Assembly (NCBI GenBank): GCA_045114775.1
Contig: JBGULC010000044.1
Coordinates: 68,264-132,263, forward strand
Direction: 5' to 3'
DNA length: 64,000 nucleotides
Source of the DNA: Christensenellales bacterium
GTDB taxonomy: Bacteria > Bacillota > Clostridia > Christensenellales > CAG-138
The notes beneath the pieces are model-generated. The model ran no database searches. It was not told where the DNA came from and saw only the letters and a list, made by a program, of their open reading frames with translations. Each line of letters opens with the position of its first letter. Position 1 is the stretch's first letter. Positions 31,185 to 41,443 of the stretch are shown in pieces. Position numbers and translations under genes: made by a program.

Positions 31185-32768
31185 TCAATCGATCACGTCG
31201 ACCCGGTAGATGATGTATTCTTCTCCCTGCAGAATGTAGAGATGACCGTTGGAGTATCTGAATGTGTTAGTGATCGAATACTCGTCGCTCACGAACAGGA
31301 TATCCCCGTTGGCGATATTCAGCAGCGTCGGTCTGTCGTTCATATTTACAGCCACAAGCAGCGGCATCGAATCGCTGTCTGGCACAGACGTGCGCCCTTC
31401 CTTTGCTTCGAGCGTGAAATCCTTATTCTCAAGGATCAGCATCGCTTCATCCTCGCTGTGGTCGACGGCTTTTTTGAGCAGCAGGCCTTCGACATCCTCT
31501 CCCTTGATGACCGTTCCGTCCGGATAAATGAGGCCTTCACCGCCGTCCTCATATGTCAGTCTCATAAAGCCGTAAGCTTCGGGACACGCAAACGTCACAT
31601 GATCTTCCGCAGTTATGATCGCTTTGCCCTCGGTATCCATGACAAGGCTGTACCCGTTTTCGTCGCTTCCGTACAAGAACGATCCGTCGAAGTTCGGGGT
31701 ATATTTGAACGGCAGAAGCTCGATCTGTTTGCCGGTGCGGTCAAAAAGCGTCCCGGTCTTTGTGTCGTAATCATAATAGTAAAACAGCTGACCGCCGTTG
31801 TAGATGCAGCGCGGATCATCGTCGAGCACAGCGATCTCATTCAGATCGCCGTCGTAAACGATATATTTATTGTCCTCCGTGCGTTTCAGCAGCAGGCCGA
31901 ACTGGAAACTGCCGTCAAAGTCTGCGACCGGATTGCCGTTCAGGTCATAGATCGCTTTTCTCTTGCTGAAATACAGCTTATCGCCGATTTCGTAGACGTC
32001 ATACGATTCCGTGCTTTCGGTCCGCTTGAGGTCGCCGACGAAGCGTCCCTCGACCATATCGTAATACAGCGCGTAACCGGCATAAAGCTTATCGCCCTCG
32101 TCGGGCATCAAGGAGAACCGACTGCTCGTCACATACATAAACGCGTCTCTCTCGTCGCTCACTTCTTCCGTCGCGTAGCTGACTTCGATGAACCGTTTGC
32201 TGTCATGTATATCGTCGATGATGGCGGCGGATACCGGAATCGACACGGTGCCGTCGGCTTTGACGAGTCCGACGCAGTTTACGCCCTTGTCTATCTGATA
32301 GACGAGCCAGGTGTCGTTGATAAAGGGTTCCACATAGTCATAGGTCTCGCCGAGCGCGTTGTTCCCGTTGGCATCCAACAGTTCATACTTACCGTCTTCG
32401 GTTGATACGAACATGCCTTGGGATCTGATCCTTGCTCGCTTGATGACAGACGCGTCGACCGATCCGACCTTCGTCAGCTTGATCGTCATGCCGAGAAGGT
32501 CGCTGGAAGTGATCAGCTCTGACGGCAGTTCGGCAGCCGCTTCGGGTTCCGGCTTGGGATCGGGTTCCTGTTCGGGATCGGGCTCCGGTTCGGGATCGGG
32601 CTCCGGTTCGGACACGGGTTCGGATTCCGGTTTTTGCTCGGAAACGGGTTCCGATGCGGGCTTGTTCGCTGCCTCGGGATCCTTCTTGTCGGTATTACCG
32701 GTCTTTGCACAGCCGACGACCGCCAGCAGCATCAGAACGGCGAGTACCCAAACGATGGCTTTTTTCAT
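31185..32768 (-). CDS. Secreted lipoprotein with Pro/Glu-rich linker and WG-type beta-repeat-like body
   Basis: Lipobox AVVGC, (EP/DP)n linker, recurrent aromatic-Gly beta-strand repeats. AAGGAGGAAAAT RBS. Confidence 0.6.
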   Translation of the reverse strand: MKKAIVWVLAVLMLLAVVGCAKTGNTDKKDPEAANKPASEPVSEQKPESEPVSEPEPDPEPEPDPEQEPDPKPEPEAAAELPSELITSSDLLGMTIKLTKVGSVDASVIKRARIRSQGMFVSTEDGKYELLDANGNNALGETYDYVEPFINDTWLVYQIDKGVNCVGLVKADGTVSIPVSAAIIDDIHDSKRFIEVSYATEEVSDERDAFMYVTSSRFSLMPDEGDKLYAGYALYYDMVEGRFVGDLKRTESTESYDVYEIGDKLYFSKRKAIYDLNGNPVADFDGSFQFGLLLKRTEDNKYIVYDGDLNEIAVLDDDPRCIYNGGQLFYYYDYDTKTGTLFDRTGKQIELLPFKYTPNFDGSFLYGSDENGYSLVMDTEGKAIITAEDHVTFACPEAYGFMRLTYEDGGEGLIYPDGTVIKGEDVEGLLLKKAVDHSEDEAMLILENKDFTLEAKEGRTSVPDSDSMPLLVAVNMNDRPTLLNIANGDILFVSDEYSITNTFRYSNGHLYILQGEEYIIYRVDVID

Positions 32769-32854: not shown

Positions 32855-33742
32855 TCACAAAAGCCCTTCGTTCGACATGATCAACCGCATATCCTCCGGC
32901 AGCGGCGCGGAAAACGTCAGCGTTTCGCCCGTGATCGGATGCACAAAGGTGAGCGCCGCCGCGTGCAGCGCAGGGCGGTCGATCCGGTCGCTCCGCGTTC
33001 CGTAGAGCCAGTCGCCGACGAGCGGATGCCCGATGTACGCCGTGTGCACCCGAAGCTGATGCGTCCGCCCGGTGACCGGAACGAGCCGCTCGAGCGTCAT
33101 GCCGTTCTCCGTTTTCAAAGCTTCCAGAAAGCTCCTCGCCTCCGCGCCGTCCGTTCTGACGCAGCGCTGATAGGTCGAGTCCGGCAGCGGTCCGATCGGC
33201 GCGTCGATCACGATCCGCTCCCGTTCGGGGACGCCCTCCACGATCCCGAGATACGTCTTTTGAAACAGTCCCGCATGCTGGATCGCCTTCATCCGCGCGT
33301 GGATATACCCGCTTTTCGCAACGGTCATAAGCCCCGTCGTACCCTTGTCGAGCCGGCTCACCGGATGCGGATTTTCGCGTTCCGTCCACAGCGCTGCAAG
33401 CGCGTTTTCGACCGTGGGTTCTTTCGGATCCCGCGCCGGATGGACCGCAAGGTCCGCGGGCTTAGAAAGCACCGCGAGCCATTCGTCCTCATAGACGATT
33501 TGAATCGGGTATGGAATCGGCGCGATCGGCAGCCGTTCCGGGTCCGCGGGATCGAAGGCGACGACGTCGCCCGTCGCGGTCCTCGCCGTTGTGTAGACCG
33601 GCTCGCCGTTCAGAAGCAGCGCGCCGCGGCGACGCTTGAGCCTTCTCAGGTACGATTCCGAGACCGCGTAGGCGTCTTGAAGGACGTCCTGAACCGTTCT
33701 TCCCGCTTCCTGCGCTTCGATTGTGTGCGTCAGCATTTTCAT
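32855..33742 (-). CDS. RluA-family 23S rRNA/tRNA pseudouridine synthase
   Basis: S4-like N-terminus, catalytic HPVSRLDKGTTGLM, HQLRVH block. Start at 33742 or 33736. Confidence 0.85.
   Translation of the reverse strand: MKMLTHTIEAQEAGRTVQDVLQDAYAVSESYLRRLKRRRGALLLNGEPVYTTARTATGDVVAFDPADPERLPIAPIPYPIQIVYEDEWLAVLSKPADLAVHPARDPKEPTVENALAALWTERENPHPVSRLDKGTTGLMTVAKSGYIHARMKAIQHAGLFQKTYLGIVEGVPERERIVIDAPIGPLPDSTYQRCVRTDGAEARSFLEALKTENGMTLERLVPVTGRTHQLRVHTAYIGHPLVGDWLYGTRSDRIDRPALHAAALTFVHPITGETLTFSAPLPEDMRLIMSNEGLL
32886..32920. repeat. 35-bp direct repeat, copy 2 (inside the pseudouridine synthase coding 3' end)
   Basis: Encodes ..TFSAPLPEDMR of the synthase. Partner at 31076-31110. Confidence 0.85.
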
Positions 33743-33792
33743 GCGCTCAGTATAGCAGAGCGCGGCGGTTTTCGCAAGGCGTATTCGCCCGG

Positions 33793-34275
33793 TCATACGC
33801 TCGTCCGTTTCTCTGCCGAAGCCCGTTTTTCCTGCGCAAGTCTCTTGAGCTCCGCCGCCTTTTCGAAAAAGACCTGCGCCATCTGCTCGCTCGTCAGCGT
33901 ACGCTTGCCGGTCTCCGGCGGGTTCGGTTTCGGCGCAGGCGCGATCGTCTTCGGTTCGGGTGCGATCGGCTTCGGTTCGGGTTTCGGCGGCTCCTCTTCA
34001 AATTCCGGCGCTTCGTAAAGATCCCAGACCGGTCCGAAGCGACCCTGTCTTCTGCGGGTAAAGCCCAAAGTTTCCAGATCCCGCAAGATCTCGCCGATCC
34101 GCTGCTCGGAAACGCCCAGCTCCTCGCCGAGCTGTTTTTCACGGAATTCCCATCCGTCGGGATGCGCGAGCATGTTTGCGTAAACGCCGAGCTGATCCGG
34201 CTGCATGCCCGCAAAGCGCGCGGCGTCGACCGACAGCGGGACGTACATTCTTCTTTTCTGCATTCGTTTGATCAT
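33793..34275 (-). CDS. Winged-helix DNA-binding protein, Rep/DnaD-like (mobile-element-type)
   Basis: ATG at 34275 behind AAGGAGGAAG. HTH segment EKQLGEELGVSEQRIGEILRDLETLGF, Pro-rich linker, coiled C-terminus. Confidence 0.4.
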   Translation of the reverse strand: MIKRMQKRRMYVPLSVDAARFAGMQPDQLGVYANMLAHPDGWEFREKQLGEELGVSEQRIGEILRDLETLGFTRRRQGRFGPVWDLYEAPEFEEEPPKPEPKPIAPEPKTIAPAPKPNPPETGKRTLTSEQMAQVFFEKAAELKRLAQEKRASAEKRTSV

Positions 34276-34313
34276 GGTTTTCTTCCTCCTTGCCAACAGT
34301 ATCGCACAAAATA

Positions 34314-34356
34314 CCCCCTGAAAATTCCTGAAATAAGTTCACAATTCGCTGTCCCG
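34314..34356. repeat. Inverted repeat, left arm (43 nt)
   Basis: CCCCCTGAAAATTCCTGAAATAAGTTCACAATTCGCTGTCCCG. Reverse complement of 34870-34911 apart from one extra T; 37 nt are perfect. Confidence 0.95.
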
Positions 34357-34535
34357 TAAAGCGGACGGAACCGCAGCGATATGTACGGTTTCAATGCCTT
34401 TCCGTGCGGGGCGCGTCCGGACGGACTGCAGGGGCGGGTGACGGATATTTCCTGCCTTATACGCCGGAAGCTTCAAGTCTTTCAACCGGGCGGACGCGAA
34501 AAGAAGCGTGGTCGCCCTTTCATCCGCACTTTCAG

Positions 34536-34569
34536 GGCACGGCATTTGACGTGCCGTGCCTGTCTTTTT
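34536..34569 (+). terminator. Terminator-like hairpin inside the IR-bounded segment
   Basis: GGCACGGCA-tttgacg-TGCCGTGCC followed by TGTCTTTTT. No annotated gene is upstream on this strand. Confidence 0.4.
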
Positions 34570-34604
34570 CTCACATCTCTCTGAATAGTCAGTCTCCTTT
34601 CCCT

Positions 34605-34702
34605 GAGTGAGACGCTTTTTCCTAAGTGAGACTTTCTTTTCTTTTTGGCTTTATTCCTTAAGTAAGTGAGACTATATAAGTGAGACTTAATGGAAGTGAG
34701 AC
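34605..34702. repeat. Five forward copies of (A/G)AGTGAGAC with irregular AT-rich spacing
   Basis: Copies at 34605, 34624, 34664, 34678 and 34694. Confidence 0.9.
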
Positions 34703-34705
34703 GTA

Positions 34706-34826
34706 CTTCCCTTTCTCACTTCCCTGTCTCACTTCCCTTTCTCACTTTCCTGTCTCACTTGCATTTCGTACTTTCCTGTCTCACTTCCCTTTCTCACTTG
34801 CATTTCGCCCTTCCCTGTCGCACTTA
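34706..34826. repeat. 13-bp tandem repeat array, about 9 units, consensus CTTCCCTKTCTCA (reverse complement contains GTGAGAC)
   Basis: Units start at 34706, 34719, 34732, 34745, 34758, 34771, 34784, 34797 and 34810. Orientation is opposite to the left block. Confidence 0.95.
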
Positions 34827-34869
34827 CGCGCCGAAGCCTGGACGGGACAATCGGATTCCTTCCGTTTTT

Positions 34870-34911
34870 CGGGACAGCGAATTGTGAACTTATTTCAGGA
34901 ATTTTCGGGGG
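34870..34911. repeat. Inverted repeat, right arm (42 nt)
   Basis: CGGGACAGCGAATTGTGAACTTATTTCAGGAATTTTCGGGGG. Ends 49 nt before the endolysin start codon. Confidence 0.95.
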
Positions 34912-34960
34912 TGCTTTTCTGCTATGATGGAGTTGCCCGGGAAAGGAAAGGTGATTTCTG

Positions 34961-35689
34961 ATGATTGAAACAAAGGAATTGACAACGGCAAACAGGCTTC
35001 GGGAGGACTTTCTGAAGCTGCTGCGGGGTCAGATCGGAACGGGGATCTACGTCTGGGGCGGCAACGGCGAGATCCTCGATGAGATGAAGGACCCGGTCGG
35101 CTGGATCCTGCAGCATGAAACGAGCCGCGAGAACGCGCAGCGTGTGTTCCGTCTCTACGCAAAGCGGGTCGACGGCGGCGTGAAGCCGATCCGCGCCTTC
35201 GACTGCTCGGGGCTCGTCTATTGGGCGCTGAAGGCGATCGGCGTCCAAAGATCGGACGTTTCGAGCCGCGGGCTTTTTGCGCTCGTGAAGCCGATCGGAG
35301 AGAGCGAGCTGCGTCCCGGCGATCTCGTCTTTCATCACGACGGGAAGCAGATCGTGCATGTCGGCGTGTGCGACGGAGAGGCGCAGATCGAGTGCCGCGG
35401 GCGCGACGTCGGCGTGGTGCGAAACGCGCGTAAGCCCGGTTATTGGAACCGCTTCGGCAGACTTCCGGCTTTTGCGGTCGAGTCGCAGGAGGTCGTAGCG
35501 ATCCTCGGCGGATCGGTGCGCGTTCGCGAAGGCGACAGCGTTGCGTCCCGATGCGTCGGCATCGTGCACAGGGGCGAAACGTACCCGCTGATCGGCGTCG
35601 GCGCGTCCGGCTGGTATCGGATCCTGTGGCGCGGGACCGAGGTCTGTATCACGAACAAGCCTCAGTACACGGAGGTGCGCCGTGGCTGA
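34961..35689 (+). CDS. NlpC/P60 peptidoglycan endopeptidase with C-terminal SH3 domain (phage endolysin-like)
   Basis: Catalytic Cys in AFDCSGLVYWAL and His in IVHVGV. SH3b-like tail GWYRILWRGTEVCI. Confidence 0.8.
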   Translation: MIETKELTTANRLREDFLKLLRGQIGTGIYVWGGNGEILDEMKDPVGWILQHETSRENAQRVFRLYAKRVDGGVKPIRAFDCSGLVYWALKAIGVQRSDVSSRGLFALVKPIGESELRPGDLVFHHDGKQIVHVGVCDGEAQIECRGRDVGVVRNARKPGYWNRFGRLPAFAVESQEVVAILGGSVRVREGDSVASRCVGIVHRGETYPLIGVGASGWYRILWRGTEVCITNKPQYTEVRRG

Positions 35690-35891
35690 AAAGACTGTGA
35701 CCGAGATCCTCGAAGCGCTTGCAAGGATCGAAACGGACGTCAGGACGATCGCGAAGAACGCCGCGGACCACGAAGCGCGGCTGCGCGTCCTGGAGGGCAA
35801 AAGCGGCAAACGAATGGAACAGATCACGGTCTCCGTGATCACGGCGGTGCTCGTCGGTCTCGTCGGGTACGCGCTGGGCAAGGTGTTTTGA
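35682..35891 (+). CDS. xhlA: XhlA-family phage lysis accessory protein
   Basis: 69 aa. Coiled-coil N-terminus and a single C-terminal TM segment. GTG start behind GGAGG, overlapping the endolysin stop. Confidence 0.6.
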   Translation: MAEKTVTEILEALARIETDVRTIAKNAADHEARLRVLEGKSGKRMEQITVSVITAVLVGLVGYALGKVF

Positions 35892-35905: not shown

Positions 35906-36094
35906 ATGCGTCAGAGCAGAAACAAGAGCGTGCTCTTTTGGATCGGGCTTGTGTCGGCCGTGTATGAAGCGGTGATCTCGAGCCTGATGAGCGCCGGGGT
36001 CGTGATGCATCCGGTCGTCGGCGCGATCGGCGTAGCGCTTGCGACGGTGCTCATCTACTGCAACGGCAACAACCCGAGTCTGAAGGAGTACTGA
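35906..36094 (+). CDS. Small two-TM phage holin
   Basis: 62 aa from the ATG behind AAGGAGGAAC (the track ORF starts at an upstream TTG). Two hydrophobic helices and a polar C-terminus. Confidence 0.6.
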   Translation: MRQSRNKSVLFWIGLVSAVYEAVISSLMSAGVVMHPVVGAIGVALATVLIYCNGNNPSLKEY

Positions 36095-37072: not shown

Positions 37073-40000
37073 TTACCTGTTCATTCTCCAAATGCTCTGC
37101 CGCTCCGCAGGCCGTTTCGCCGGTACGGGCTGCGCTTCTATGCGCCGCGGTCCTCCGCGAAGGAACGCCGGTTCCGGGAGCGAGTCGGGGGGCGGTTCCG
37201 GAGGATTGCCATCCTGCGTGAGGTCGGCAGAATCTGGGGTCGGGTCGGGGGTCTCGTCCTCTTTCGGGGATTCGGCCGGGTCGGTGGTCTCGTCCTCTTT
37301 CGGGGATTCGACCGGGTCGGTGGTCTCGCTTTCTGTCAGAGTTTCGATCTGTTCGGAGATCTCTCCCTCCGTCGGCTGATCGCCGGCACCTCCCTCGTCA
37401 GAGGGAGGTTGAATCGAAGGCACGGTCGAAGTATCTGTCTCGACTACTGCTCCTTCTCCTACCTCTGAGCTCCCCTTGTCAGGGGAGCTGTCAGCTTCTG
37501 CTGACTGAGGGGTAGTTTCGACTGTGACGGTCGTAAACGAAGCCTCCGGGTTCTCCATCTCTGTCGGGGATTCTTCCGGTTCGGGAATCTCTCCCTCCGT
37601 CGGCTGATCGCAGACATCTCCCTCGTCTAAGGGTAGTTGCGTGCTTGCGTCGGATTCCGGGGTCTCTCCCTCCGTCGGCTGGTCGTCGATGACACATCCT
37701 TCGACCGGAGGCTGATCGGTAGCATCCCCATCGGATGATTCGTCGCAGGACGTCGTTTCCGTATTGTCGAGCGTTTCCTGCTCTGCATCGGAATCTTCGG
37801 GCTGCTTCTCCAAGGCCTCTGCAGCCGCGCGTTCCGCCGTCGAATCAAGACGAATGCCGCGCAGCAGGAACGTCGGGATCGGGAACGAGATCGGCACCTC
37901 CTCGATCGGAAACGCTTTGTGTTCCTCTGCCGTCGGCGATTCTGCAGGAGGTTCTTCTTCCGTCAGCGCTTCGACCGGGTCGGGGGGTTCTTCTTCCGTC
38001 AGAGCTTCGATCGGTTCGTGGGACTCTCCTTCCGTCAGGGCTTCGGTCTGTTCTGAGGTCTCTCCCTCCGTCGGCTGTTCGCCGACACCTCCCTCGTCAG
38101 AGGGAGGTTGCGTGCTTGCGTCGGATTCCGGGATTTTTCCCTCCGTCGGCTGTTCGTCGACACCTCCTTCATCAAAGGGAGGTTGAATCGAAGGATCAGT
38201 CGAAGTATCTGTCTCGCGTACTGCTACTTCTCCAACGTCCGAGCGCCCCTTGTCAGGGGAATTGTCAGCTTCTGCTGACTGAGGGGTAGTTCCGTCGGTG
38301 ACGGTCGTAAACGAAGCCTCCGGGTTCTCCCTCTCCGTCGGGGATTCGTCCGGTTCCGGGATCTCTCCCTCCGTCGGCTGATCGCAGATAATACTGTCTT
38401 CAGCAACGGGCTGAACCGCGTCGCTTTCGTCGGCAGCGGGCTGAATTGCGGCGCTTTCTTTGGCAGCAGGCTGAGCCGCGGCGCTCTCGTCAACTATGGT
38501 TTGAACCGCTGTGCTTTCGTCGGCAGCGGGCTGAATTGCGGCGACGCTGTCGGCGAGCGTTTCCGGGACGATTTCCGATTCCGGCATTATTTCTTTGAAC
38601 GAAACTTCCGGTATGGGATCCCTGTCGTGCTTCGCTTCGCCGGCGATTGCGGAGATCGCCGCTGCAGAAGCCGGTATGACAGTCGAGGTAGGCTCGTCAA
38701 AGCCGTTGACGTAATGCAAAAGGGAAACGCCGTCCCGAAGCGTATGCGAAGCCTCGGATCCGTGCGACGAATCGGATCCTTTGAAGGAAGACGGTTCGAC
38801 CGTTTTGCGCAAACCGGATTCCGAAACCGTCCGCACAACAAAGGTTCTTTCCGCGGCAGGCGCCGCGGGTTTTGCCGGTTCATGTTCCGTCTTCGGACGC
38901 GGCATGACCGTTCGCACGACAGCGGGCCGCTCCGAAGATCTCGGTTCGGCGAAACGGGCGCTTTCCGGTTTTGTGGCAACCGGCTCGACAGGCCGTCTGA
39001 ACACGACGGTCTCGTCGCTCGTACGCGCGGCGGGTCTTTCAAATGCGGGTGCTTCCGCCGTCGGTCTGCGGAACTCGCCGGTATTGCCCTTCGGTCTCGG
39101 CGTGACCGGTTCGGCGGGCCGTCTGAACGCTGCGTCTTCCGTCGGACGCGCGGCGGGTCTTTCAAATGCGGCTGCTTCCGCTGTCGGTCTGCGGAATTCG
39201 CCGGTGTTGCCCTTCGGTCTCGGCGTAACAGGTTCGGCGGGACGCCGGAATGTTGCGGTCTCCTCCGCGGATCGCGCCGCGGGTCTTCCCGATTCGGATG
39301 CTTCCGCAGTCGGTCTGCGGAATTCGCCGGTGTTGCCCTTCGGTCTCGGCGTAACAGGTTCAGTACGCCGCGCCGCGGGTCTTGCAAATTCGGATGCTTC
39401 CGCTGTCGGTCTGCGGAATTCGCCGGTATCGCTCTTCGGTCTCGGCGTGACCGGTTCGGCGGGACGTACGTATGCAGCCGTTCCGGGCTTTGCCGTCAGC
39501 ATGATGCGTGTGCCGTCTGCGGTGCGCATTGAATCGGGCTTGGCAGCCGACAGGACGCGTGTGCCGTCGCCGTCGATGCGTACTGATGTATCCTGTGCGG
39601 CAGAACGTGCTGCGGGTCGCGCGCCTTCGCGCCGCATATCCTCGGCAAGGCCTCTTGCGTATAGCTCGCGCCTTGCCTTCGCCTCCTCGTCGGTCAGTTC
39701 GCCGTAGCTTCTGAGCTTGATCGGCTGTCGGTAGCCGAAGCGCTCGGTCGGCGTGTCGTTGAAAAGCGGATCGTCCGGGCGGCGTTTGGTGGCGCGAAGC
39801 GCCTTCTCCATGTCCTCCTCGAACTCGCCCGGCAGCTTGCTTCTGATCTTTCTTTCGAACGCGTAAAGCACGATACACACGATCGCGCAGAACGCCGCGA
39901 CGCCGAGCGTGATCACGGTGATGAGCTTCAGGATCCCGCGATACTTCGCGTCGAGATCCTGCATATAGGGATTGGTGGTAACGACGTAGACCGGATCGGT

Positions 40001-41443
40001 CTTGCGGTCGACCTGATCGCGGAACGGCGTCGTATCGACGGTGACCGTCTGTGAGCTGTGCGTCTGTCCCGCCGGATCCTCTGCGTCGACGCGGAAGCAG
40101 AGCTTGCCGACGCCGTCGATCTGATAGGTCTGCGTAAAATAGGTATCGCCGCGCAAAAGCTCCGGATAGGACACGACCTCATGGAACAGGGTCGTTTCGG
40201 TCAGTACGGCTTTTTTGAGCCTGATGTCGCCGTAATAGCCGATCCGGAACTGGAACGCAACACAGAGCTTGCCGTTGCCGTCGAAGTAAGGCTTCTGCGG
40301 CTCGACGCGCAGCTCGATGCGCACGCCCTCCTGCTCGATATACGGCGTCACGCGGAAGGATTCGGGATCGGTAACGGTAACGGGCTTTAGAAGCGCATCC
40401 GTTCCGGTCGCATGGAAACGCACCGTGCGGATGACGTCCGCGGCGACGCCCGGCTTCACAACATAACGGATCGATTTCGTCTGATTCGCGGGCAGATCGA
40501 AGGGATTGTCGACGAGCGTATTGATCTCATCGTAGACACGGATGTCGGTAACCGTGCGGTTGCCGTTGTTTTTAACGGTGATGATGAACTCGGTCCCCGC
40601 TTCCGTTGCCGGGAACGCCTGTGTGGAGATCGATAGATCCACTGTGACGGAACCGACGCCGATCGCCGTCTCCGCGACCGTCGTGATGTTTCTGCGCCGC
40701 GCAACGTATTCGACCGTCGGGCGGAACGTCATATCCGTCACGCCCATCGTGTAGGTCACGGGCACGACCATCGTCCGTCCCGCGGTAAGCTCGTCGCTTG
40801 TGAGCGGGATCGACTGAAGCCCCTGCTCCGGATCGTAGAGCCGAAGCCCGGTCATATCGAACAGGGTGTCGTTTTTCAGCGTGTATTCGACGGTAAACGA
40901 ATCGCCGACCCGCACGAGCTCGTTCTCGCAGAAGGCGGAAACGGTCAACTCGGGCACGATAAACCGCTCGATCACGATGTTTGCGGAGGTTTCCCTGAAA
41001 TGCGTGATCGTAACGGCTTCGCCGGTCTCGTCGTCGATGAGCGCTTCGCCCGTTTCCTCGTCAAAAGCCGGTTCATGCTCCTCCCAGGAAAGCGTATAGG
41101 TCACGGGAACGTCAAGCTGATCCTCGGCGATGGGGACGTCGGAAAGCGTGAACTCCCGCTTGCCGCCCGCAAGGACCTCGATCTTCTCGTCGAGCGCGCG
41201 TTCGACGTCTTCATAGCCGCCGGAAAGCTTTGCGTTATACAGCGTATAGTCGGATTCGGAATCGTTGAAGATCGTGAAAAGCATGTCCGGCACGGTCCCT
41301 TCGCCCTCAAGTTCGGGCATCGGATCGACCGTGATCGAAAGCGTGATCGGATGCTCGCCCTCGGCAAAGCCGCCCGCGGGGACGATCGATGCCGGGAGCA
41401 GAAGCGCCAATATGCAGATCAGGATGACAATGCGTCGTTTCAT
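37073..41443 (-). CDS. Giant single-pass membrane protein: signal peptide, four Ig-like/CARDB-like modules, TM segment, and an approximately 930-aa disordered repeat-rich tail
   Basis: 1456 aa. Signal peptide MKRRIVILICILALLL, TM segment ILKLITVITLGVAAFCAIVCIVLYAF near residue 500, tail rich in P/E/T/A/R with tandem and segmental repeats. Confidence 0.75.
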   Translation of the reverse strand: MKRRIVILICILALLLPASIVPAGGFAEGEHPITLSITVDPMPELEGEGTVPDMLFTIFNDSESDYTLYNAKLSGGYEDVERALDEKIEVLAGGKREFTLSDVPIAEDQLDVPVTYTLSWEEHEPAFDEETGEALIDDETGEAVTITHFRETSANIVIERFIVPELTVSAFCENELVRVGDSFTVEYTLKNDTLFDMTGLRLYDPEQGLQSIPLTSDELTAGRTMVVPVTYTMGVTDMTFRPTVEYVARRRNITTVAETAIGVGSVTVDLSISTQAFPATEAGTEFIITVKNNGNRTVTDIRVYDEINTLVDNPFDLPANQTKSIRYVVKPGVAADVIRTVRFHATGTDALLKPVTVTDPESFRVTPYIEQEGVRIELRVEPQKPYFDGNGKLCVAFQFRIGYYGDIRLKKAVLTETTLFHEVVSYPELLRGDTYFTQTYQIDGVGKLCFRVDAEDPAGQTHSSQTVTVDTTPFRDQVDRKTDPVYVVTTNPYMQDLDAKYRGILKLITVITLGVAAFCAIVCIVLYAFERKIRSKLPGEFEEDMEKALRATKRRPDDPLFNDTPTERFGYRQPIKLRSYGELTDEEAKARRELYARGLAEDMRREGARPAARSAAQDTSVRIDGDGTRVLSAAKPDSMRTADGTRIMLTAKPGTAAYVRPAEPVTPRPKSDTGEFRRPTAEASEFARPAARRTEPVTPRPKGNTGEFRRPTAEASESGRPAARSAEETATFRRPAEPVTPRPKGNTGEFRRPTAEAAAFERPAARPTEDAAFRRPAEPVTPRPKGNTGEFRRPTAEAPAFERPAARTSDETVVFRRPVEPVATKPESARFAEPRSSERPAVVRTVMPRPKTEHEPAKPAAPAAERTFVVRTVSESGLRKTVEPSSFKGSDSSHGSEASHTLRDGVSLLHYVNGFDEPTSTVIPASAAAISAIAGEAKHDRDPIPEVSFKEIMPESEIVPETLADSVAAIQPAADESTAVQTIVDESAAAQPAAKESAAIQPAADESDAVQPVAEDSIICDQPTEGEIPEPDESPTERENPEASFTTVTDGTTPQSAEADNSPDKGRSDVGEVAVRETDTSTDPSIQPPFDEGGVDEQPTEGKIPESDASTQPPSDEGGVGEQPTEGETSEQTEALTEGESHEPIEALTEEEPPDPVEALTEEEPPAESPTAEEHKAFPIEEVPISFPIPTFLLRGIRLDSTAERAAAEALEKQPEDSDAEQETLDNTETTSCDESSDGDATDQPPVEGCVIDDQPTEGETPESDASTQLPLDEGDVCDQPTEGEIPEPEESPTEMENPEASFTTVTVETTPQSAEADSSPDKGSSEVGEGAVVETDTSTVPSIQPPSDEGGAGDQPTEGEISEQIETLTESETTDPVESPKEDETTDPAESPKEDETPDPTPDSADLTQDGNPPEPPPDSLPEPAFLRGGPRRIEAQPVPAKRPAERQSIWRMNR
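38990..39470. repeat. In-frame tandem repeats within the giant ORF (four units, periods 123/126/96 bp)
   Basis: The core GCTTCCGCNGTCGGTCTGCGGAAYTCGCCGGT recurs at 39051, 39174, 39300 and 39396. It encodes EPVTPRPKxxTGEFRRPTAEA. Confidence 0.9.

Follow-up and report, generated by a model that had tools for sequence, protein, structure and literature searches.

A conserved iteron-like repeat array between the putative divergent promoters of a winged-helix gene and a lysis-type gene cassette in a Christensenellales bacterium

Here, we describe a cluster of short repeats and the genes around it in a stretch of 64,000 nucleotides from a Christensenellales bacterium (GCA_045114775.1, contig JBGULC010000044.1, positions 68,264 to 132,263), which is called the window in the following. 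The repeats occupy positions 34605–34826 and lie in the intergenic region between two divergent genes. To the left, the gene of a winged helix-turn-helix (wHTH) protein of 160 aa is encoded on the minus strand (33793–34275; the same gene was called in Logan), which is the presumed binder of the array. To the right, an NlpC/P60 peptidase is encoded on the plus strand (34961–35689). The gene order reads SpoVT, in some loci a lipoprotein, RluA and wHTH, and, diverging from these, NlpC/P60, a protein of 69 aa, a protein of 62–63 aa, an alpha/beta hydrolase and a giant protein. This neighbourhood is common to most of ~15 related metagenomic loci from uncultured gut and rumen Clostridia.

The repeats form two opposed clusters. 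The first one, on the plus strand at 34605–34702, consists of five (A/G)AGTGAGAC sites embedded in AT-rich DNA with spacings of 19, 40, 14 and 16 bp. An earlier sequence-only reading had listed five forward copies of GTGAGAC, and all five were located. Exact copies of AAGTGAGAC are present at 34624, 34664, 34678 and 34694, and the copy at 34605, GAGTGAGAC, carries one mismatch. Furthermore, a sixth near-copy in reverse orientation was found at 34569. The second cluster, at 34706–34826, is a tandem array of nine 13-bp units, which on the minus strand read AAGTGAGAMAGGG. From 34706 on, units 1–5 are, head to tail, CTTCCCTTTCTCA, CTTCCCTGTCTCA, CTTCCCTTTCTCA, CTTTCCTGTCTCA and CTTGCATTTCGTA, followed by CTTTCCTGTCTCA, CTTCCCTTTCTCA, CTTGCATTTCGCC and CTTCCCTGTCGCA as units 6–9. 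Tandem Repeats Finder (TRF) reported a period-13 array at 34705–34825 with 9.3 copies, 77% matches and the consensus ACTTCCCTTTCTC, and super-periods of 26 and 39 bp obtained better scores than 13 bp. The nine units stand as first described. The reverse core, which had been ascribed to seven of them, is exact in six ((K)TCTCACTT), the seventh being only a near-match (GTCGCACTT), and the other two are degenerate (CTTGCATTTCG..). The two blocks abut at 34702/34706, as read from the sequence.

The clustering of GTGAGAC is far above chance. Eight of the 12 exact matches in the 64-kb window fall within 34607–34784, and, with up to one mismatch allowed, 13 of 38 matches to AAGTGAGA are located inside 34569–34825, where ~0.16 would be expected in these ~270 bp. 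The GC content is 41–44% at 34500–34800 vs ~58–60% around it. An open reading frame (ORF) at 34680–34961 had been regarded as the mere translation of the array, which is supported, as it is best explained by composition, namely a pyrimidine-rich strand with few stop codons; a comparable ORF was not seen in lineages with other motifs, for which no homology search was made. Read along the transcription of each flanking gene, the nearer site cluster is GTCTCACTT for both of them. This results in a nearly dyad-symmetric layout of the intergenic region, in which two promoter arms enclose two sets of sites that point in opposite directions.

These arms, which had been overlooked in the sequence-only reading, are the two halves of an inverted repeat of 70 nt (34301–34370 and 34856–34925). 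They are 87% complementary, 485 nt apart, contain a perfect 37-bp core and bracket all repeats. The left arm constitutes the upstream region of the wHTH promoter and the right arm that of the promoter of the lysis cassette to which the NlpC/P60 gene belongs. Outwards, each arm ends in an extended −10 element, which is followed by a ribosome-binding site and the start codon. By consensus, the extended −10 element of the wHTH gene is TGCGATACT (34298–34306, minus strand), with the ribosome-binding site GGAGG at 34285–34289 and the ATG at 34273–34275, and that of the NlpC/P60 gene is TGCTATGAT (34920–34928, plus strand). At the equivalent positions, TG(C/G)(G/C)ATACT recurs in the majority of the examined orthologous loci (L090, L091, L093 and L095 have variants), and TGnTAT(G/C)(A/C)T in most orthologues on the NlpC/P60 side. 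The two arms are paralogous to each other in every locus examined and homologous throughout the family, where they read GAATTrTG.....ATT.C.GGAA, followed after ~20 nt by the extended −10 element. A transposon or miniature inverted-repeat transposable element as source of the inverted repeat was rejected, as no target-site duplication was seen and the arms hold the promoters of the flanking genes in every species.

A long inverted repeat around an intergenic segment beside surface or lysis genes also recalls an invertible, phase-variable switch, in which the 70-nt arms recombine, the 485-bp segment flips and the expressed gene changes. The short-read contigs of the source sample indeed break inside both arms. 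However, any inverted repeat that exceeds the k-mer of the assembler is expected to cause such breaks, and the interior is nearly dyad-symmetric, so that a flip would alter little. The orientation of the array is identical in the window and in the related loci L006, L007 and L004, the arms contain the promoters in all loci, and no recombinase gene is present among the conserved neighbours. Furthermore, the arms of L006 are only ~75% identical to each other, as counted from the sequences, compared to the perfect 37-bp core of the window. Inversion is therefore considered highly improbable. The right arm of the window matches the left arms of both the window and L006, and a recent gene conversion between the two promoter copies of the window is suggested by this sequence comparison.

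The dyad symmetry is broken on the left side by a GC-rich, lineage-specific insert of ~200 nt (34371–34571, plus strand), which is absent from more distant relatives. It ends in a terminator-like hairpin at 34535–34561 with an 11-bp stem (GGCACGGCACGTCAAATGCCGTGCC) and a T-run, which points towards the lysis genes. A structured RNA gene in the insert was considered and rejected, since folds of 34371–34575 were no more stable than shuffled sequences on either strand (z −1.6 and −0.7). A permissive E-value scan of 33500–35500 against Rfam returned chance-level matches only. In L006 the hairpin is part of a unit of ~165 nt, which is duplicated in tandem (853–1180 of that locus), and in L004, L007 and L093 a different hairpin is located directly beside the wHTH promoter arm. 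L006 has additionally gained two further tandem arrays between the hairpin units and the wHTH arm (1329–1560), a perfect 12-bp repeat of 4.2 copies (CGATGGTACGCG) and a 50-bp repeat of 3.4 copies, and its spacer is lengthened to 1.46 kb. The intergenic region of L006 seems to be prone to gathering repeats.

Orthologous loci were recovered by a profile scan of genome contigs with an alignment of the NlpC/P60 protein. Compared to the window, L006 is close, with a synonymous divergence (dS) of 0.29, and L004 and L007 are saturated (dS ~1.6). In all three the core GTCTCACTTA is kept in two opposed clusters, which differ in copy number and spacing. In L006, 12.6 units of 13 bp face seven copies in the opposite cluster, L004 displays a 23-bp period, and L007 has only ~seven sites. 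The retention of GTCTCACTTA despite a dS of ~1.6 implies selection on the motif. This agrees with the earlier description of the repeats as iteron-like and protein-binding, as the motif survives in several copies even at saturated synonymous divergence (dS ~1.6, L007).

Beyond these loci the motif changes and its place does not. By lineage, the motifs are GTGAGAC, TGTAATTAC, AACAGGTTTATT, TTCTTAAGAA and ATCGATAT. Arrays of other motifs, with periods of 13, 14 or 32 bp, are present at the same position in L008–L011, L088–L090, L093 and L094, where the arms and the flanking genes are conserved. Here, L008 carries ATGTAATTA(A/C)AT with a 14-bp period, as does L010 with ~15 units, L011 carries AAACAGGTTTATT with a 13-bp period, L090 carries GATATTCTTAAGAAAAYCGATTTAT with a 32-bp period and L093 carries ATCGATAT or ATACGAT; a further motif, GATCGTTCTTAAGAA, is found in L091. 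In L009, L088 and L089 copies of TGTAATTAC are arranged around a perfect central palindrome of 15 bp, and L094 has TGTAATTAC without the palindrome. In all loci with both flanks recovered the array is located between both promoters, and it is always accompanied by the wHTH gene. A motif that turns over in fixed surroundings fits a dedicated binder with a single target, and neither a global host factor nor non-functional DNA would easily account for the pattern. The palindrome itself, GATCATAATCATGCT...AGCATGATTATGATC, is found where the two clusters meet (L009 3780–3825, L088 2797–2838, L089 2817–2858), and may be a separate binding site or form a cruciform.

The protein appears to vary along with the motif. 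Within the GTGAGAC class the recognition-helix region is constant, with the segment SEQRIGEIL in the window, P0002 and P0003 and SKQRIGEIL in P0004, and it differs between motif classes. At least five motif classes have been found, each with a different recognition-helix sequence, and this pattern follows the phylogeny. At the sequence level the co-variation of helix and motif is thus suggestive.

These data bear on a different explanation, according to which the repeats bind another factor, or represent a structural or slippage-prone AT-rich spacer without a specific binder, and the wHTH protein acts elsewhere. It would be in line with the arms rather than the repeats being the conserved part, and with tandem arrays growing and shrinking by slippage, as for the 9 units of the window vs the 12.6 units of L006. 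On the contrary, the motif persists where divergence is saturated, each lineage has at this place an array of its own that is just as regular, and a pleiotropic host factor would not tolerate such a turnover of its motif. Furthermore, the wHTH gene, the array and both arms adjoin the citrate-lyase genes citE and citF in L091 (2521–3483), without the lysis cassette and RluA, and the arm facing citE keeps the TGGTATCAT element. It appears that in L091 either the module has moved or the lysis cassette has been lost. Since the module is found in another neighbourhood, protein and array travel together. We therefore regard another binder or a mere spacer as unlikely. Downstream of the wHTH gene of L091 (3470–3830) a long hairpin with CCTCCCTTGTGTAAAGGGAGG-like arms is flanked by direct repeats, and a palindromic element with such arms occurs again inside the intergenic region of L094 (2590–2660) and could represent a repetitive or mobile element of small size in these genomes.

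For the wHTH protein, an AlphaFold2 model displays a winged helix at residues ~16–86 with a predicted local distance difference test score (pLDDT) of ~90, a disordered, proline-rich linker (92–124) and a C-terminal amphipathic helix (129–159). The latter matches designed coiled coils in a sequence search of the PDB and probably mediates oligomerisation. The wHTH domain is under purifying selection, with a ratio of nonsynonymous to synonymous divergence (dN/dS) of 0.085–0.16. The linker is nearly free to change (0.3–0.8), and the C-terminal helix is intermediate. A Foldseek search against the PDB revealed generic MarR, ArsR and Z-alpha winged helices only, with the N-domain of RepA (4pql) at rank 39. 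As generic matches stand above 4pql, structure alone assigns no family.

The assignment of the protein comes from profile comparisons. The N-termini of the family match the PHROG annotations 'replication initiation protein' and 'DnaD-like helicase loader' with E-values of 1e-4 to 2.5e-7, and the profiles matched (phrog_4707, 270, 186 and 4221) are met in the N-terminal parts of initiators. An hhalign comparison of the family profile with a phage Rep protein of 277 aa yielded a probability of 96.6% and an E-value of 5e-10 over residues 3–94. This Rep protein is located in the replication module of the viral contig L092 and matches phrog_4707 with an E-value of 4e-24. Close homologues of the wHTH protein are rare, with 4 among 5.8 billion sequences and ~30 using a profile. 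Among 1.84 billion representatives, the short family comprises 22 clusters at E ≤ 1e-30, with lengths of 90–268 aa and mostly 146–191 aa. Below it, the score drops sharply to proteins of mostly 130–590 aa, most of them longer than the core family, and the longer relatives align only over their first ~75–160 residues. Six of ten sampled longer relatives contain HTH_36 together with Phg_2220_C or DUF6017, or HTH_36 alone, and four have no Pfam match. The wHTH protein does not possess the C-terminal, helicase-loading half of the full-length Rep relatives; only the linker and one helix follow the wHTH domain. By homology, it is a short stand-alone offshoot of the origin-binding N-domain class of initiators of phages and mobile elements. 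N-domains of the RepA_N type are known to bind iterons (PMC7145576), and the earlier proposal that the adjacent winged-helix protein belongs to an iteron-binding class is supported by this homology. No match for the wHTH protein was obtained in NCBIfam, in a tblastn search of annotated phages and plasmids or in a profile scan of genome contigs with the wHTH alignment, and IMG/VR contained one distant match only.

A protein of this class beside such sites immediately suggests a replication origin, either working or recently decayed, in which the wHTH protein would be a minimal initiator, the repeats iterons and the AT-rich segment 34570–34700 the unwinding element, with origin and lysis genes as the remnant of a prophage or satellite. 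Of the rival explanations, this is the strongest, since both the class of protein and the arrangement of the sites resemble an origin. The wHTH protein is homologous to the N-terminal domains of Rep proteins, five forward sites and nine units form short opposed repeats in AT-rich DNA as iterons do, motif and protein are paired in a lineage-specific manner like iteron incompatibility groups, and the endolysin is of phage origin. GTGAGAC-core iterons are also found inside large ORFs of the phage contigs L103 and L109. In L103 (8439–8634), six copies of CGTGTCTCACTTTTT surround two TTATCCACA (DnaA) boxes inside a large ORF that matches DnaD-like helicase loaders, and this is a textbook origin inside a rep gene. 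In L109 (1974–2110), three copies of AAGTGAGAC and the near-copy AACCGAGAC follow an 11–12-bp period, likewise inside a large ORF. The scans of viral sequences for paired AAGTGAGAC returned 43 loci, which is near a rough chance estimate; L103 and L109 are the two genuine ori-type iteron arrays among these, and hmmsearch detected no homology of the L103 and L109 proteins to the wHTH family of the window. The shared GTGAGAC core may therefore be a coincidence.

Several observations speak against an origin. The chromosomal neighbours are unchanged across species in which the NlpC/P60 proteins share 62–68% and the wHTH proteins 31–36% identity; these syntenic loci include L007 (GCA_016648615.1) and metagenome-assembled genomes of rumen and gut 'Clostridia bacterium' (L008–L011, L088–L090, L093 and L094). 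No integrase, replication, packaging or partition gene is present in or beside the module, and helicase and primase genes are missing as well. Judged by this synteny, the locus is chromosomal, old and vertically inherited. The initiator would be incomplete, as the C-terminal domain of the full-length relatives is missing. No close homologue was found in annotated phages and plasmids, with the single distant match in IMG/VR, and purifying selection on a co-varying protein would not be expected to persist at a dead origin. Within the region, whose GC content of 41–44% would suit an unwinding element, no DnaA box and no recognizable 13-mer unwinding element were found. The GC skew is steadily −0.03 to −0.08 up to ~34 kb and near zero thereafter, a change that coincides with the array. 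Given the gene orientation, it fits a model without a strand switch, in which a constant replication term and a transcription term account for −0.05 on the left (minus-strand genes) vs 0.00 at 52–64 kb (plus-strand genes). A chromosomal origin was rejected as well, as there is neither a sign switch in the GC skew nor a DnaA-box cluster. Taken together, an origin is distinctly unlikely, and the plasmid or phage origin put forward in the sequence-only reading is not supported, given the chromosomal, syntenic position of the locus, the missing C-terminal domain and the absence of an integrase, helicase or primase gene next to it.

We favour, with somewhat better than even confidence, that the array is an iteron-like operator for a domesticated Rep N-domain protein, which controls the divergent promoters. 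That the array is flanked by two paralogous promoters which face outwards speaks for transcriptional control. The gene of the putative regulator is adjacent and divergent, and the sites lie in the shared control region, as in an operator array. The repeats themselves are real, conserved and biologically meaningful, and they probably serve the neighbouring winged-helix protein as iteron-like sites, as proposed in the sequence-only reading.

Mechanistically, we infer that the wHTH protein binds the repeats and does so cooperatively, many copies loading on 10–20 closely packed sites. With a 13-bp unit, each copy would be rotated by ~86 degrees from the previous one, so that the proteins would spiral round the DNA. 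The flexible linker and the C-terminal helix would let copies on the opposed clusters pair. This would result in one large nucleoprotein complex between the promoters, which would set both together. Such a complex may autoregulate the wHTH gene and may hold the lysis genes tightly off until it is lost, so that the response would be switch-like.

Short repeats that follow one another directly, but not in helical phase, are also a feature of centromeres, and a DNA-binding domain followed by a flexible linker and a short C-terminal helix is reminiscent of the adaptors that bind them. TubR, which binds iterons, likewise has a winged helix (PMC6009700), and centromere-binding proteins commonly autoregulate via the same sites (PMC6009700, PMC9499535). 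A centromere or anchoring site comparable to ParR/parC, TubR/tubC or RacA/ram, at which the wHTH protein serves as adaptor and uses its C-terminal helix to bring in a motor or a landmark at the pole or membrane, would have a similar appearance. On the contrary, no ParA-, ParM- or TubZ-type gene is present at the locus or within ~7 kb in any relative, and there is a single, chromosomal site, whose constant partner is a lysis cassette and not a motor. This makes a centromere very improbable. The ParR/parC-type centromere suggested earlier does not agree with a chromosomal, syntenic locus that has no ParM-, TubZ- or ParA-type gene next to it, and both this proposal and that of a plasmid or phage origin are probably wrong.

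Nevertheless, some points weigh against the operator for a domesticated Rep N-domain protein. The sites never overlap the −10 and −35 elements: in relatives they end ~20–45 bp outside the arms, and in the window they are located 100–330 bp upstream of the −10 elements. Since the sites are clear of −10 and −35, the promoters are not simply occluded; activation is no less possible than repression, and an architectural role is possible too. Both promoters have been assigned by consensus alone, and the conserved arms suggest a second factor. The TGTAATTAC core goes with three recognition helices (SQTEIHRIL, TPEEIRAIL and TGEEIRGIL), and, since helix and motif both follow the phylogeny as well, their co-variation is not proof. 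Finally, opposed iterons in AT-rich DNA beside a Rep-type protein are also origin-like.

The genes to the right of the array have predicted functions in lysis. The NlpC/P60 protein is an endolysin-type C40 peptidase with an SH3-like C-terminal part (PF00877, E 1.2e-11). For this protein 372 homologues were found, some of which also match PF08239. The homologues of L013, L014 and L017 immediately follow long ORFs; that of L017 also has a small membrane-like ORF just upstream. The long ORFs may be read as putative phage structural genes and the homologues there as putative phage endolysins. The next gene (35682–35891, plus strand) encodes an XhlA/hemolysin-like protein of 69 aa with a C-terminal transmembrane segment, which is kept in every syntenic locus and matches phrog_937 ('hemolysin', E 1.4e-5) and phrog_689 ('holin', E 3.8e-4). 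It is followed by a gene for a hydrophobic, holin-like protein of 62 aa (35906–36094, plus strand; gene call in L002), and a gene for 62–63 aa is found at this position in all syntenic loci. The protein of 62 aa has no family match in Pfam or PHROG scans and is termed a holin because of its size, hydrophobicity and position. In terms of predicted products, the NlpC/P60, XhlA-like and holin-like genes have the shape of a phage-derived lysis cassette.

Further neighbours are RluA, SpoVT, the alpha/beta hydrolase and YigZ. The giant protein of 1456 aa is encoded on the minus strand at 37073–41443. It displays a signal-peptide-like start, a hydrophobic segment in the middle and long acidic or proline-rich tandem repeats, and TRF arrays of 36, 30, 96 and 123 bp are located within its gene at 37241–39465. 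The giant protein and the alpha/beta hydrolase are kept beside the lysis cassette in relatives, and the giant protein is a possible cargo or partner of the cassette. On the other side, the gene at 31185–32768 encodes a putative lipoprotein of 527 aa, which varies among relatives and is absent in L088 and L089. It contains an 18-bp repeat of 3.9 copies (32541–32632, minus strand), which corresponds to a low-complexity linker of the PEPEPD type.

A lysis cassette under the putative control of a Rep-type domain also allows the idea of a titration-type phage sensor wired to suicide, i.e., abortive infection. Here, the truncated Rep domain would sit on chromosomal iterons and hold the lysis cassette off, and a replicating phage or satellite with matching iterons or a matching Rep protein would draw the protein off and cause early lysis. 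In this case, the fast change of motif and helix from lineage to lineage would be the mark of an arms race. A PADLOC search with the wHTH protein, the NlpC/P60 protein, both small cassette proteins and the alpha/beta hydrolase gave no match. Such a sensor is considered quite improbable, compared to an operator at which the Rep N-domain protein controls the divergent promoters.

In the literature, no described system with this combination of features was found. In staphylococcal pathogenicity islands (SaPIs), the origins consist of two opposed sets of short iterons, which flank an AT-rich stretch, with Rep and origin being island-specific; here, Rep is a helicase and the islands excise and replicate. 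The array of the window is similar in that opposed iteron clusters meet over AT-rich DNA, but neither helicase nor excision functions are encoded beside it. The iteron origins of Firmicute phages, plasmids and satellites with RepA_N, HTH_36 or DnaD-like initiators (RepA of pSK41 and pTZ2162, PLE RepA) have a homologous DNA-binding N-domain, and as in the window short repeats with lineage-specific motifs lie beside the gene in AT-rich DNA (PMC7145576). In contrast to these, the protein described here consists of the N-domain and a short helix only, is chromosomally encoded without replication genes, and its repeats are located between two promoters and not inside or downstream of rep. Also the repeats differ, as a tight 13-bp tandem array is present in the window, whereas the Firmicute iterons are semi-palindromic, 8–9 bp long and arranged around a poly-A tract (PMC7145576).

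The heptads of Omega (ParB-pSM) from pSM19035 and inc18 plasmids are likewise contiguous, very short direct and inverted repeats upstream of promoters. Omega dimers bind side by side and out of helical phase, the number of contiguous repeats matters, and the arrays are transcriptional operators (PMC9499535, PMC4627068). In contrast to the winged helix, the 13-bp unit and the lack of an ATPase in the system of the window, Omega is a ribbon-helix-helix protein with a 7-bp unit that is plasmid-encoded and serves a centromere together with the delta ATPase. The ParR/parC and TubR/tubC systems share two iteron clusters and a small autoregulating protein, which in the case of TubR is a winged helix that wraps or rings the DNA (PMC6009700, PMC5016525). 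Unlike these, the locus has no ParM or TubZ motor gene, is not part of a plasmid or phage and has a lysis cassette as its putatively regulated partner.

A phage-type lysis cassette in the chromosome outside a prophage is known from type 10 secretion, in which domesticated holin/endolysin genes serve to release proteins, e.g., in Yersinia entomophaga (PMC10847048), and the cassette of the window is located beside the gene of a very large secreted or surface protein (37073–41443). The type 10 family is defined by function, and the regulator and repeat array of the window are without a counterpart in the described type 10 systems.

If the favoured reading is true, the locus would clearly exemplify how the DNA-binding domain of a replication initiator, together with its iterons, can become a gene switch of the chromosome. 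The layout is unusual, with twin promoters in a long inverted repeat and a dense 13-bp array between them. Furthermore, the lineage-specific pairs of motif and protein would represent a natural set of orthogonal proteins and operators, which may be used to study the evolution of specificity or in synthetic circuits. Since the lysis cassette is kept by the whole clade, the question arises what programmed lysis serves in these bacteria, which may be the release of spores or proteins, the release of DNA or vesicles, or the defence against phages.

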